Shown one piece after another: positions 215 through 30,872 of a stretch of DNA of 64,000 nucleotides. The stretch lies in assembly GCA_038087875.1 (NCBI GenBank), contig CM075993.1, forward strand, positions 11,844,001 to 11,908,000, read 5' to 3'. The notes below the pieces were generated by a model. The model was not told the origin of the DNA. It made no database searches and worked only from the letters and a program-made list of their open reading frames with translations. Within the stretch, counting starts at the first letter, position 1. Each line of letters opens with the position of its first letter. Source of the DNA: Malacoraja senta. Its lineage: Eukaryota. Both the position numbers and the translations under genes were made by a program.

Positions 215-1370
215 ATCTCTATCAGTCTTTTAGCCCAGCGTATACACCTCTGCAAGATCTACCCTCATCCTCCTGCATTACAATGAATAAAATGCTAGTC
301 AACCCAACCTCTCCCCAGCTCATGCACTCATGTCCTGGCAACATCCTCGCAAATCTGCTCTGCACTCATTACAGCTGAACATCATCTTTCCTGCAGCAGG
401 ATGACAAAAACTGAACACAGTATTTAAAATGTGGCTTCACCAACGTCTTGCACAACTCTAACATAACATCCCAAATGCTATACACAATACCCTGACTGTT
501 AAAGGCCAATGGGCTGAAAACCTTATTGACCACCCTATCTACCTGTGATGCCACTTTCAAGGATTTATGCACCTGCATTCCTAGATCCCTCTGCTCCACA
601 ACACTCCACACAGCCCGAGATCCACTGTGAAGTTCCTGCCCTGGTTTGAGTACCCACAACTCCGTTAAGCAACTGATCAAGATACTGCTGTAATTTTTGA
701 TAACCATTTTTACTATCTACACCACCTACTTTAGTGTCATCTGCAGACTTACTAATCATGCCGTGTACATTCTCATCCAAATAGTTGATATAAACCACAA
801 ACAGCAATAGGCCCAACACCAATCCCTGAGGCACACCACTAATCACAGGCCTCCAGTCTGAAAACTCCATCATCCTCTGCTTCCTTCCATGAAGCCAATA
901 TTCTATCCAATTGTCTAGCTCCCTAGATCCTATGCAATCTAACCATCCAGAGCAGCTTACCAAATGCCTGATGAAATCCTTGTTGGTTCGTTTACGGCTC
1001 TGCCCTCATCAATCTTTTTGGTGCATATTCAAAAAACTCAGATTTATGAGACATGATCGCCCACATACATGGTTATCCCTAATCAACCCCTGTCTATCCA
1101 ATGCATAAATATCTTATCCCTCAGAATCCTCACCAGTAACTTGCCTACCACAGATATTAGGCTCACTGGTCTATAGTTCCCAGGCTTTCCTTGCAGCCCT
1201 TCTCAAATAGAGGCACAAGATAAGCCATGCTCTAGTCTTCCGACATCACACCCGTATCTAATGATAATTCATATAACTCAGCAAGGCTACCTGTCATTTC
1301 TTCTCTAGCTTTGTAGTGTCCTCGGATATATCTTATCAGGTCCAGGAGATTTGTCTACCTTCATACGCCT
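215..1370 (-). mobile_element. CR1 LINE RT fragment, degenerate
   Basis: GVPQGLVLG, SADDTKVGG and YCVQF motifs in ORFs 369-707 and 565-963. Confidence 0.85.
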
Positions 1371-1515
1371 TGACGTTCAGATACAGATACAGTAGATGAG
1401 GTTGGAGGAGGTGCAAGTGAACCTCTGCCTAACCTGAAAGGACTGTCAGAGTCCCTGGACAGAGTCGAGGGAGGAGGTATAGCGTCAGGTGTTGCATCTT
1501 CTGTGGTTGCAGGGG

Positions 1516-2895
1516 AATCTTCTGGAATATTTTGAGGATGTAACTAGGAAAATGGAGAAGGGAGAGCCAGGAGATGTAGTGTACCTGGACTTTCAGAAAA
1601 CCTTTGATAAGGTCCCATCTAGGAGATTAGTAGGCAAAATTAGAGCACATGGTATTGGGGGTGGGATACTGACATGGATAGAAAATTGGTTGGCAGACAG
1701 TATTGATTTAGAGTCCTTGTAATAATAATGACCTCACACCATGTCAGGTTATAGAGTTTATTAGGAATAAGCAACTACAACTTCTCACTTGAGAGTTGAC
1801 TTTTTAGACTAACGGAGTGCAGTAGAACGCGACGCTAACAAGCTAGTGGGCGTACCTGCATGACTCGTAGCATGAGCCACTAATCTACAGACAGGAAACA
1901 AAGTGTAATGATTAACAGGTCCCTTTCAGGCAGGCAGTGACTAGTGGGGTACCGCAAGGCTCGGTGCTGGGACCGCAGCTATTTACAATATATATTAATG
2001 ATTTAGATGAAGTGATTCAAAGTAACATTAGCAAATTTGCAGATGACACATAGCTAGATGGCAGTGTGAACTGTGAGGAGGATACTATGAGGATGCAGGG
2101 CGACTTGGACAGGTTGGCAGATGCAGTTTAATGTGAATAAATGTGAGGTTATCCACTTTGGTGGCAAGAATAGGAAGGCAGATTATTATCTGAATGGTGT
2201 AAAGTTAGGAAAAGGGGAAGTACAACGAGATCTGGATGTCCTTGTTCATCAGTCACTAAAAGCAGTGAAGAAAGCTAATGGCATGTTGGCCTTCATAACA
2301 AGAGTTGAGTATAGGAGCAAAGAGATCCTTCTGCAGTTGTACAGGGCTCTAGTGAGACCACACCTGGATAATTGTGTGCAGTTTTGGTCGACAAATTTGA
2401 GGAAGGGCATTCTTGCTATTGAGGGAGTGCAGCGTAGGTTCACAAGGTTAATCCCCAGGATGGTGGGACTGTCATATGTTGATAGAATGGAGCGACTAGG
2501 CTTGTATACACTGGAATTTAGAAGGATGAGTTGGATCTTATTGAAACATATAAGATTATTAAGGGATTGGATACGCTAGAGGCAGGAAACATGTTCCAGA
2601 TGTTGGGGGAGTCCAGAACCAGGGGCCACAGTTTAAGAATAAGGGGTACGCCATTTAGAACGGAGACAAGAAAAAACGTTTTCACCCAGCGAGTTGTGAA
2701 TATGTGGAATTCTCTGCAGTGGAGGCCAATTGGATGCTCTCAAGAGAGAGTTAGATAGAGCTCTTAAAGATAGGGGTCTAGGGATATGGGGAGAAGGCAG
2801 GAACGGGGTACTGATTGTGGATGATCATCCATGATCACAGTTAATGGAGGTGCTGGCTCAAAGGGCCGAATGGCCTATTCCTGCACCTATTGCTA
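1516..2895 (+). mobile_element. CR1 LINE 3' half
   Basis: YLDFQKTFDKVP and KCEVIHFG motifs; 3' UTR ending ggccta.tcctgcacctatt. Confidence 0.88.
1701..1889 (-). mobile_element. Short insertion, probable solo LTR, inside a CR1 RT region
   Basis: Interrupts CR1 WLADR|KQRV; direct repeat gacag at 1696-1700 and 1890-1894; minus strand begins TGTAG and contains AATAAA. Confidence 0.55.
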
Positions 2896-2898
2896 TTG

Positions 2899-3588
2899 AA
2901 GGTACCTGAGGGGGTGGTTTGGGTGGGAAGGGATGAGTTAACCAGGGAGTTGCAGAGGGAACGGTCTCTGTGGAAGGTGGAAAGGGGTGGAGATGGGAAA
3001 ATGTGGCTAGTGGTGGGATCCCGTTGGAGGTGGCGGAAATTTCGGAGGATTAAGTGTTATATGTGATGGCTGAAGAGGTGGAAGGTAAGGACTAGGGGGA
3101 TTGTCTCTTCTGCGACTAGGGGGAGGGGGAGCAAGGGCGGAACTGTAGGGTACTGAGGATACACGAGTGAGAGCCTCATCTATGATGGGAGAGGTGAACC
3201 CCTGTTCCCTAAAGAATGAGGACATCTCTGATGTTCTTGAATGGAACACCTCATCTTGGGCGCAGATGCGGCGTAGACGGAGGATTTGGGAGTAATGGAG
3301 AGTTTTTGCAGGAGGTAGGGTGGGAAGAAGTGTAGTCGAGATAGTTGTGGGAACCTCATCTACTGTATCCGTTGTTCCAGATGTGGACTCTTATATATCG
3401 GCGAGACCAAATACAGACTAGGCGGTCGTTCCGCGGAACACCTTCGCTCAGCCCGCGTGAACCAACCTGATCTCCCAGTTGCTGGACACTTTAATTCTCC
3501 TTCCCATTCCTGCACTGACCTTTCTGTCCTCAGTTTCCTCCATTGTCAGTGAGGCTAAACGGAAGTGAGGAACAGCATCTCATATTTC
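2899..3588. mobile_element. Penelope-like element fragment: RT C-terminus on minus (2899-3351) joined to GIY-YIG endonuclease on plus (3352-3588)
   Basis: Plus strand reads NLIYCIRCSRCGLLYIGETKYRL..R..EHLRS..PVAGHFNS. Minus strand reads HNYLDYTSSHP.SCK and FFREQGF..IIDEAL. Confidence 0.85.
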
Positions 3589-4210
3589 CCCATCGTTTAA
3601 GAGACAGTTAGACAGGTACATGGATAGGACAGGTTTGGAGGGTTCTGGACGAAGTGCAGGCAGGTGGGACTAGTGTAGCTGGGACATTGTCAGCTGTGGG
3701 CAAGTTGGGCTGAAGGGCCTGTTTCCACACTGTGTCACTCTGTCACTCTATGACCTGAATTGTTTGCTCTGGAACATTGGAGTGGCATAGATAGGCAAAA
3801 TTGTGAGGGCCATAGATGAGATACACAGTCAGAATGTTATTCCCCAGGGTGGAAATGTCCAACACCAGAGCTTTAAGGTGAGACGAGAAAAGTTTAATGG
3901 AGATGAGCAGGGCAAGGTTTTTTTGGGCACAGAGGGTGGTGGGGCCCTGGAACGCATTGCCAGGGGTCGTGGTGGTGGAGGCTGATACAATAGTGGCGTT
4001 TAAGAGGCTTTTAGATAGGCACATGGAAGTGCAGGGAATAGAGGGGATATGGATTATGTGCAGGCAGACAAGATCAGTTCAGCTTGGTATCATGTTCGGC
4101 ACAAACATTGCGGGCCGAATGGCCTGTTCCTGTGCCTTACTGTTCTACAATTCACAGTGAAATGATGTTAGCAAGAAGACAAATAACTGAAAGCTTTTAT
4201 ATTCCATGAA

Positions 4211-4500
4211 GTTTAGTTTAGTTTAGAGTAGGAGCACGGAAACAGGCCCTCCGGCCCACCAAATCTGTGCCAACCAGCAATCCCCACACACTAACACTAT
4301 CGTACACACACTAGGGACAATTTACAATTATACCAAGCCAATTAACTCACAAACTTGGAGTATGGGAGGAAACCGGAGCACCCGGAGGAATCCCACGCTG
4401 TCACAGTGAGAACGTACAAACTCCATACGGATAGCACCTGTAATCAGGATCAAACCCGGCTCTCTGGCCCTGCAAGGCAGCAACTCTACCGCTGCGCCAC
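4211..4500 (-). mobile_element. tRNA-derived V-SINE (HE1-like)
   Basis: A-box/B-box head (GGCGCAGCGGTAGAG, GGTT.GATCC), V-domain, CR1-type 3' tail and (CTAAA)n. Confidence 0.85.
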
Positions 4501-4511
4501 TATGCACTAAC

Positions 4512-4809
4512 CTCTAACATGTAGGTGAGACGATATGGTAGAAGGTTGCGAATGAGAACTGTGGGGCGGAGATGAATGATATAGGCTGGATCCCACTCAT
4601 CTTCACCAAGGTTACTGATGAAGTTCAGCTCATCTGGAATGGCAATGGTGTTTACTATGAGCGGTAAATAGCCGGTGTCAGTGGAAGGACATTGTAGGAT
4701 ACACTGAATCTCTGTGCTCCTGTGAATTTCTTCCTTCCATGTGATGTACGTTGTTGTTGCTTTGAACTTATTCTCCAGCTCTCCTGCTGGCTTTAAAAAC
4801 AAGTGGTCT
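4512..4809 (-). CDS. VPS13C: VPS13C exon (DHLFLKPAG...TTYITWKEEIHRS...AYIIHL...RNLLPY...LE); last in window
   Basis: VAB-repeat RNLLPY motif; ttctgttttag acceptor, GTTAGT donor; 298 bp, phase 2 to 0. The gene continues beyond both window edges. Confidence 0.95.
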
Positions 4810-12356: not shown

Positions 12357-12746
12357 AACAATGAAGAAATGTGTAGGAAGGAACTGCAGATGCTGGTTTA
12401 AACGGAAGATACTTACAAAATATTGGAGTAACTCAACGGGTCAGGCAGCAGCTCTGGAGAAAAGGAATATGTGATGTTTTGGGTGGAGAGTCAGGGAAAG
12501 GGGAAACGAGAGATATGGACGGTACTAAGGACAAATGAATGGAAGATATGCAAAATGTAACGATGATCAAGTAAAGATGGAGCCATTGTTGGCTGTGGGG
12601 TCGATGATAACGAGTTATACAGACAGTGAAACTCAACAGTACGATACTGAAACTAGTAGGGTGACTAAGATGGGGGAGGGACGGAGAGAGAGGGGATGGA
12701 AGGGTTACTTGAAGTTAGAGAAATCAATGAAGAAAAGCTCTATTAC

Positions 12747-23648: not shown

Positions 23649-23738
23649 CTGCAGATTCAGACTCCATCTTTGCTCTCCTGGAACCACTTGCTCCAAGAGT
23701 GGCTCCCACACCGCATTCAGTTCATTATAATAAAGGAC
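23649..23738 (-). CDS. VPS13C: VPS13C exon (VLYYNELNAVWEPLLEQVVPGEQRWSLNLQ)
   Basis: VPS13 family YYNE..WEPLLE motif; AG acceptor, GTAAT donor; 90 bp, phase 0 to 0. Confidence 0.95.
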
Positions 23739-29275: not shown

Positions 29276-30297
29276 AACTTCTATCCTTCATGAGTTCCAA
29301 TATTGGCCTTGAATATACTCAACAGCAGATTCCATTACAACCTTCGGCAGATAATTCCTTGATTCGTTACATTCTGGGTGAAAAAACTACATTGCATCTT
29401 TGCATTGAAAGGCTGATCCTTAATGTTCATAAGTCATAGGATCAGAATTAGGCCATTTGACCCATCAAGTCTACTCTGCCATTCAATCATGACTAATCTA
29501 TCTTTCCTCTCAACTCCATTCTCCTGCCTTCTCCCCATAACCCTTGACACACTTATCAAGAAACTATCAATCTCTGCCTTAAAAATACCCATTATGCTTG
29601 CCTCCACAGCTGTCTGTGGCAATTAATTCCACAGATTCACCACCATCTGACGAAAGAAATTCTTCCTCATCTCCTTTCTAAAGGTTCGTCCTTTTATTCT
29701 GAGTCTGTGACCTCTGGTCCTGGACTCCATGTTGTGTTGTGTCAAGAGTCTAATTTGTGCCGTGACTCTGTGTAATGTTGTGACTCTAATCCCTAGTTGC
29801 AAACATTCCAGACACAAAGAATCTTCCATCTATCTGCCAAGCACTCTATGTGTAATTGTAAAACGTATGACTGGCTGGTTACACAGGTATGCAACAAGAT
29901 GCTATTTCACGGCAGATGACAACGACTATACCGTCATCAATTTCTCATCTACTAGCACTAGACATTAGTCTTGTCAGATGCAAGAAAAGACCGCTTTGAA
30001 AAATGCAAAAAGCATGGTCCTTCCTCATATTTACCCTTAACTAATATCACAGAACCAAACGATACAATCATTTGCTAATTTTCATAAATTGGCTTCTTCA
30101 TTTCCATCATTATGAAGATTACTACATGTTGGCTGCACATCGCATCACACTAAAGAAAGTTTATATAGATCACACTTTATTTGTATTCAAATATATTGCA
30201 GTGCTAAGCACGATATCAAGTACCTAGTAAAGCAGGTCTAGTAAAATAAAAATATATTAATACATCCCAATCAAAGATAAAACAAGTTACCTCAAGG

Positions 30298-30497
30298 ATA
30301 GACACAAAATACTGGAGTAACTCAGCGGGTCAGGCAGCATATCTGGAGGAAATAGGTGACATTTCGGGTCGTGACCCTTCTTCAGTCATCGTCAACAAAT
30401 GTCATCTTTCCTCCAGAGATGCTGCCTGACCCGCTGAGTTACTCCAGCATTTTGTGTCTATCTTCGGTGTAAACCAGCATCTGCAGTTGCTTCCCAC
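30298..30497. mobile_element. Fold-back PLE-derived insertion with a 16-bp TSD
   Basis: Two inverted copies of the gatagacacaaaa..ctggagtaactcagcggg module; TSD acaagttacctcaagg at 30282-30297 and 30498-30513. Confidence 0.85.
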
Positions 30498-30506
30498 ACA
30501 AGTTAC

Positions 30507-30872
30507 CTCAAGGGTCATGTTTGAATCAATACTGATGAGTGATGTCCAGTTTTCGACTCTTCCAGAAAACGTTGACTCGGTCAAAAGCAAAGGGATGGTG
30601 CTGTGGCCGAGGCCACATTCGAGTGTTACTTTTATTAGTGGAACGATAATCTTGAAGGACTCCCCTATCCTCTGATGATTTTCTCCAAAGTAATTCTCTG
30701 TGGCTTCATCGGCATCGTCAACTCCCAGGAACCAGTAGTTGCAGTTGTGGACGTCTTTCACAGCCCAGAGGTCCGTGTCCCTGCACACTGGCAGCACCTC
30801 TTCCTTCTCTTGCACTTTAGGCCTCATCACAGACATGATTGTCGTAACAGTGTTCAGAATGATAGGAGATAT
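30507..30872 (-). CDS. VPS13C: VPS13C exon (ISPIILNTV...VTLECGLGHSTIPLLLTES...NWTSL...TLE)
   Basis: ISPIILNTV, WFLGVD, VTLECGLGH and NWTSL motifs; 366 bp, phase 0 to 0. Confidence 0.95.

Follow-up and report, generated by a model that had tools for sequence, protein, structure and literature searches.

The VPS13C exon and its duplicated splice donor

All positions refer to the window, the whole stretch of 64,000 nucleotides that was analysed. On its minus strand, a VPS13C coding exon from the VPS13 middle region (366 nt, phase 0) was located at positions 30507–30872, with both ends set by a spliced contig from organism H. The best PDB match of the exon was human VPS13C 2205–2324 (E 9e-32, vs 7e-14 for VPS13A) and Pfam returned VPS13_M, which bears out the gene assignment of the initial annotation. 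Searches by tblastn with three vertebrate proteins showed the neighbouring VPS13C exons to be collinear on the minus strand and detected no exon between 30507 and 23738. The next exon occupies positions 23649–23738 (minus strand), its acceptor being placed at 23738 by tblastn, by alignment of the junction and by the organism H contig. Joining 30507 to 23738 yields TLE/VLYYNE, which aligned without a gap to TLEVHYYNE of a lizard and a mammal protein.

The exon ends within a 16-bp direct repeat, ACAAGTTACCTCAAGG, whose copies at 30282–30297 and 30498–30513 are identical at 16/16 positions and lie 216 nt apart, in agreement with the initial annotation. Read on the minus strand, the 16-mer corresponds to CCTTGAG/GTAACTTGT, the last 7 bases of the exon followed by the first 9 bases of the intron. 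Copy 1 (30498–30513, minus strand) comprises these exon bases and intron positions +1 to +9 and carries the GT of donor 1 at 30506–30505; sequence, protein alignment and contig place this donor in use. Copy 2 (30282–30297, minus strand) carries the GT of donor 2 at 30290–30289, identical to donor 1 from -7 to +9, and its use was not seen in the contig. Four of the 16 bases, the terminal TGT and the first C, could also belong to the ends of the inserted element, which read the same; the other 12 are unambiguously from the target.

Structure of the 200-bp insertion

Between the two repeats lies a Penelope-like insertion of 200 bp (30298–30497), which folding and comparison with family copies resolved into two inverted, 5′-truncated pseudo-LTR copies arranged head to head. 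These 200 nt had been described as a fold-back element, and folding confirmed this with a free energy of -137 kcal/mol (z = -17), which was matched by 0/200 shuffled sequences. The hairpin is asymmetric and consists of two arms and an unpaired leader of 35–38 nt. In the VPS13C pre-mRNA, arm 1 (approx. 30397–30462, plus strand) reads antisense to the retrotransposon and arm 2 (approx. 30297–30363, minus strand) in its sense direction; arm 2 ends at the short one of two family end sites. A 38-nt tail (30463–30500, plus strand) is attached to one arm only and lies between these two sites, which were defined by the ends of 20 ORF-3′-linked copies; its last 3 bases are common to the repeat. The copy is devoid of an ORF; only two pseudo-LTR ends were inserted. 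Its arms differ at 3/65 positions (4.6%), which ranks third of 30 copies by likeness (family median 10.9%). Youth explains this high likeness, and selection on the stem would explain it as well.

The insertion belongs to an abundant Penelope-like family

The 200-bp hairpin, an inverted pseudo-LTR pair, is a non-coding remnant from a highly abundant family of Penelope-like retrotransposons. In the window, 63.8 kb contain 28 merged loci of the family. The 30 top-ranking copies from the genome have both ends and the fold-back layout in common. Longer members, traced via a copy at 12373–12737, contain reverse transcriptase (YIDD) and GIY-YIG-like remnants, followed by a spacer of approx. 200 nt and a hammerhead-like core that leads into the same arm. 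Pfam gave no match for any of four decayed ORF remnants. Relatives of the L032 remnant carry PF00078, PF01541 and PF26215.

A sister element, L063 (G000:C6:70338800-70345300), harbors an open frame of 1224 aa at 665–4339 (plus strand), with Pfam matches to RVT_1 (E 7e-6) and GIY-YIG (E 0.0015) that are both below the curated cut-offs. The reverse transcriptase and the endonuclease are connected by a CX4CxxC linker (CNRKRCNTC). The available text of PMC8557442 describes a linker of the type CX2-5CxxC at this position as common to the Neptune and Nematis clades. The pseudo-LTRs of L063 are direct repeats (538–627 and 4456–4545) that are 80% like arm 2, the direct repeats overall being 80–83% like the VPS13C insertion; in the VPS13C copy and in L002–L030 the pseudo-LTRs are inverted. 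L063 looks intact. Many reverse transcriptase matches share one common score and have long open frames, which suggests that this sister family is young and was recently active. The best protein matches of other genes and elements in this genome are to sharks and rays, and we took the host to be a cartilaginous fish. Literature searches on Penelope elements in cartilaginous fishes, which covered few subscription journals, returned no description of the present family in rays.

Two other family copies of the window lie behind VPS13C donors. The copy at 12373–12737 (minus strand) is a 5′-truncated direct copy, bounded on either side by an 11-nt repeat, that sits approx. 10 nt behind another VPS13C donor, and the end of its endonuclease tail lengthens tblastn matches past the true exon. 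Another family copy, at 50758–50850, lies approx. 60 nt behind a VPS13C donor.

The ends of the arms were traced with the 20 ORF-3′-linked copies, including two that look like mutual duplicates. Thirteen of them end near the short site, six at the long site 38 nt further on and one elsewhere. These two end sites match the tail and the two start sites of reverse transcription of a Penelope-like element given in the available text of PMC11167929. The VPS13C insertion contains one arm per end site, inverted and joined in the hammerhead region. In all 20 scorable copies (10/30 were unscorable), the two arms of one copy agreed at a subfamily-diagnostic site. The arms of the VPS13C insertion were thereby shown to represent the 3′ end of the pseudo-LTR, with and without the 38-nt tail, from a template of the same subfamily. 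In all of L001–L030, the arms meet head to head in the region of the hammerhead core, with an overlap that varies between copies. The core may be the place where reverse transcription stops or switches.

A short, non-coding element of high copy number with inverted arms and a target-site duplication (TSD) would also suit a DNA transposon of the MITE or fold-back type in place of a retroelement. Against such an origin, the arms are non-terminal, with a leader of 35–38 nt on one side, the duplication varies in length (approx. 10–16) instead of being fixed, and this arm is also found in direct orientation on both sides of the RT/GIY-YIG frame and behind 5′-truncated ORF remnants. We consider a DNA transposon highly improbable. 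Terminal inverted repeats and a TSD of fixed length were both absent, and this candidate was rejected.

A hammerhead-like core in the loop region

A hammerhead-like core, CUGANGA/GAAA/NUH in its general form, was read from the sequence at 30385–30358 on the VPS13C pre-mRNA strand. The motif at 30358–30385 (minus strand; CUGAAGA, stem II, GAAA..UC) is decayed and predicted by folding to be locked in the hairpin. An Rfam search of 30000–30800 revealed no hammerhead at E≤5 and returned generic hairpins alone, below their gathering scores. Stem I was lost at the junction and the palindromic ACGU is changed to AUGU in the VPS13C copy. Folding predicts pairing of the GAAA motif and of the cleavage triplet within the long stem (probability of being unpaired ≤0.05).

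The presence of the core on the pre-mRNA strand raises the possibility that VPS13C pre-mRNA is cleaved by the hammerhead immediately after the donor, with consequences for splicing or for the amount of RNA. Such cleavage is extremely unlikely, given the paired GAAA and triplet, the lost stem I and the exchange of ACGU for AUGU. In addition, single minimal hammerheads of Penelope-like elements did not cleave in vitro according to the available text of PMC4209133, and cleavage by a Penelope-like hammerhead needed the protein according to that of PMC11167929. A free stem I and a dimer-forming helix III, as expected of an active hammerhead, are missing from a copy whose catalytic strand is predicted to be paired, and we therefore took its hammerhead as inactive.

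The direct repeat as a probable target-site duplication

To classify the 16-bp repeat, we compared the flanks of sibling copies. Anchored direct repeats of at least 10 nt (at most one mismatch) flanked 15 of the 29 other copies, vs 0.3% of 870 controls with mismatched flank pairings, and anchored repeats of at least 12 nt were found in 0/870 controls. A TGT directly preceded the element in 18/30 copies. On these counts, duplications of 10–16 bp are a habit of the Penelope-like family. The 16-bp repeat is read as a TSD because sibling copies carry similar duplications. A chance repeat was ruled out by the controls of at least 12 nt, and a tandem segmental duplication of the exon end was rejected.

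The initial annotation had proposed that the element inserted across the exon junction and that its TSD rebuilt the donor and left the gene intact. This proposal gained from the family statistics, from the gap-free TLE/VLYYNE join and from the organism H contig; the TSD itself is deduced from the behaviour of the family.

Presence in other organisms and age

The element was present in 5/5 organisms examined out of 10 candidate organisms. In organisms A, B and C, unique-flank contigs ran into the element at both junctions; in organisms G and H, they did so at the exon-side junction. The exon-side contig of run X2 ended at 30524 with 24 letters unplaced, and in both runs of organism A, two intron positions (30166 and 30169) are different from the window. 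When four runs were aligned to the whole element, contigs from repeats dominated. An empty site, by which the duplication might have been verified directly, was not seen among the unique-flank contigs of the five organisms, and the TSD reading rests on the family statistics. As the insertion is shared by all five, it is older than the split that left 5–7% intron divergence. At this divergence, an intact second 16-mer has a probability of 0.3–0.7 under neutrality, and 3/65 arm differences are unremarkable. The perfect TSD and the few arm differences thus fit neutral decay.

Choice between two identical donors

The distance to donor 2 is a multiple of 3, and the initial annotation had suggested in-frame exonisation of the 216-nt extension. 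Translation of 30506–30291 did not reveal an open frame. The extension contains two in-frame TGA codons, the first at codon 35 (30402–30404, minus strand), 111 nt before donor 2, and the second at codon 59 (30330–30332, minus strand), and an in-frame exonisation of 72 codons fails because of them. Likewise, at least one stop was present in the frame read from the donor in 30/30 family copies. Use of donor 2 would truncate VPS13C about two thirds along. Premature stops more than 50–55 nt before a junction subject an RNA to nonsense-mediated decay (NMD). With its stop 111 nt before the junction, the donor-2 RNA falls under this rule and its decay is predicted.

The organism H contig of 10,784 nt is spliced and joins 30507 to 23738 and, at 30872, the upstream exon. 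It was the sole contig aligned from a run that was flagged as possibly DNA, yet it is spliced at both ends of the exon, and its aligned stretch does not contain donor 2. Neither a read-through nor a donor-2 form was seen in organism H, where a single contig is available and contigs drop rare forms. This contig shows use of donor 1, not its exclusive use. A contig from run X22 of organism G ended at 30580, short of the donor. With regard to the earlier suggestion of alternative 5′ splice-site use, donor 1 was recovered in 1/1 informative RNA-type contig, from relative H, and donor 2 was not seen among contigs, a type of data that drops rare isoforms.

Both donors match U1 at 7/11 positions and folding revealed no clear or consistent difference in accessibility; donor 2 still lies in the U-rich intron context of the original site. 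In reporters with strong duplicated donors at least 45 nt apart, the downstream donor was used at approx. 100%, whereas a weak proximal donor left the distal one active and both sites were used when weak (available text of PMC3413131). The reporter rule therefore predicts use of donor 2 and counts against its being a bystander. For VPS13C we infer that the upstream donor is favoured. It would win by its own exon context and by defining an exon of 366 nt rather than 582 nt; the site is moderate (7/11 U1 matches) and donor 2 is positioned at the foot of the -137 kcal/mol stem. RNA arising from donor 2 would probably be removed by NMD.

Alternatively, donor 2 might be a poison donor with appreciable or regulated use, in which NMD lowers VPS13C output and the hairpin may modulate the choice. 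The identity of the donors from -7 to +9, the original U-rich context of donor 2, a first stop that precedes the junction by 111 nt and the retention of the insertion in 5/5 organisms are all in line with this role. So is the preference for the intron-proximal donor, or the use of both sites when weak, reported in the available text of PMC3413131, and NMD would hide the product from assemblies. However, the donor-1 form alone was found in the organism H contig, the intact TSD and the arm identity are compatible with neutrality, and chance alone should produce hundreds of such events, of which two more were found (see below). On balance, we regard a poison donor as unlikely.

A further alternative is exonisation of the insertion as a cassette, with donor 1 spliced to an AG in arm 2 and donor 2 closing an in-frame micro-exon of 21 or 30 nt (YFVSILE or LLQYFVSILE). 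Two of the 11 AG sites at least 60 nt from donor 1 (30311 and 30320) do give an in-frame, stop-free exon, but these acceptors have 9/14 pyrimidines and are predicted to be fully paired in the stem. The best acceptor (30342, 12/14 pyrimidines) would result in a frameshifting exon of 52 nt with a stop, and the organism H contig joins the flanking exons directly. A micro-exon is accordingly very unlikely, and donor 2 as a bystander that is unused or barely used is the reading followed below.

Duplicated donors at other genes

Two exact patterns were used in genome scans and gave 29 and 21 matches, with one locus in both lists and some duplicates. Upstream frames of L070, L077, L091 and L105 were checked against Pfam or PDB, with L108 left out; the L091 frame had no Pfam or PDB match. 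At L070 (G000:C2:106478533-106481567), the same fold-back element with a 13-nt repeat was found at the donor (1533, minus strand) of an ECT2L RhoGEF exon. The second donor lies 241 nt downstream and the extension contains a stop. At L105 (G000:C6:51617065-51620093), a 15-nt repeat duplicates the donor of a TPR exon (805, plus strand) at a distance of 720 nt, and another repeat is nested in the tail of the element. The best solved relative of this exon is SPAG1, and it is also TOMM34-like. A different arrangement was observed at L077 (G000:C6:43169278-43172310), where a single arm is located at +10 of the donor (1531, minus strand) of a ZMYND8 PWWP exon. Neither a second arm nor a visible TSD was found at this locus, possibly due to a later deletion of the second donor.

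If the density of one window is extrapolated to approx. 850,000 loci and 150–200 thousand donors are assumed, some 500–700 insertions spanning a donor are expected before selection. The duplicated-donor event is recurrent and not rare in this genome, as it affected VPS13C, ECT2L and a SPAG1/TOMM34-type exon.

A model for the origin of the insertion

The best explanation, in which we have considerable confidence, is that the insertion is an old, non-coding Penelope-like remnant whose 16-bp TSD copied and rebuilt the VPS13C donor, and that it was fixed and tolerated, with donor 2 as a bystander that is probably unused or barely used. In the proposed course of events, the GIY-YIG nuclease of the element would nick one strand within the exon, 7 nt from its end, and the other 9 nt into the intron, so that the nicks are approx. 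16 nt apart. Reverse transcription of the pseudo-LTR RNA would then be primed from both 3′ ends, at its two start sites and with the aid of TGT/ACA and a microhomology of 1 nt, and the two cDNAs would join head to head in the hammerhead region. We consider this two-nick, two-strand priming with head-to-head joining of cDNAs a reasonably probable route. Fold-back self-priming, as proposed in the available text of PMC3846280, is a serious alternative to which we give somewhat less than an even chance. The concordance of the arms in 20/20 copies is in line with one template, and a self-priming fold-back would give the same agreement.

Fill-in left a complete donor (-7 to +9) beside the exon, with reading frame and junction unchanged. 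Splicing at donor 2 would add the 216 nt with their two stops. The insertion would have drifted to fixation before the split of the tested species.

Comparison with known systems

The insertion resembles EN+ Penelope-like elements of the Neptune/Nematis type in several respects. The available texts describe inverted, 5′-truncated pseudo-LTR copies with a tail of 30–40 nt at one end (PMC3846280, PMC8557442), as well as a short, variable TSD and a hammerhead motif in the pseudo-LTR (PMC3846280, PMC8557442, PMC11167929); the combination of inverted pseudo-LTR, tail and a TSD of 8–10 bp is described in PMC3846280. The full-length relative, with its reverse transcriptase, CX4CxxC linker and C-terminal GIY-YIG domain, conforms to the element type portrayed in these texts, from which the VPS13C insertion differs in consisting of two pseudo-LTR ends alone without an ORF. 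According to the available text of PMC11167929, the Penelope protein of the anole cuts and extends both target strands in vitro, and its reverse transcription begins at two start sites separated by the tail. The anole element was primed without homology in vitro, whereas the priming sites found here have 1–3 nt of microhomology to the target.

Compared with the minimal hammerheads of metazoan Penelope-like elements in the available text of PMC4209133, the conserved core and the bulged base before stem II are the same. The palindromic helix-III sequence recurs in family copies, and inverted nearby pairs are mentioned for Penelope-like elements in that text. In contrast, the VPS13C copy no longer has stem I or the palindrome, and folding predicts that it is buried in the hairpin.

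Introners, transposon-derived introns covered in the available text of PMC11282704, are similar in that a TSD supplies a splice signal, the insertion is spliced out and the protein is unharmed. They are derived from a DNA transposon, whereas the VPS13C insertion is a retroelement, and here an existing donor was duplicated and the element joined an existing intron instead of creating a new one. The duplicated 5′ splice-site reporters (available text of PMC3413131) likewise have identical donors approx. 200 nt apart that compete for one acceptor. They differ from the natural, moderate donor of VPS13C with its 6.5-kb intron and the strong hairpin between the sites, and the upstream site was seen here, the reverse of the reporters. 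An account of a TSD duplicating a splice donor as at VPS13C was not found in the literature searched, which comprised few subscription journals and no supplements.

Biological implications

The VPS13C insertion is an ordinary tolerated retrotransposon insertion and an example of a TSD saving a gene. The copies of its family record in DNA the two-start-site, two-strand priming that was reported in vitro for a Penelope element. A more far-reaching reading, which we consider improbable, is that in these cartilaginous fishes one Penelope family duplicated donors at many genes, hundreds of cases being expected, and that its stop-carrying hairpins, each placed between two identical donors, seed poison donors, some of them used and regulated via NMD; the usual win of the upstream donor would then test 5′ splice-site choice in a natural setting across the genome. 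If donor 2 were indeed used as an NMD-coupled switch, the insertion would be of greater significance. The set of duplicated donors could serve to test in vivo why, of two identical donors, the upstream one prevails.
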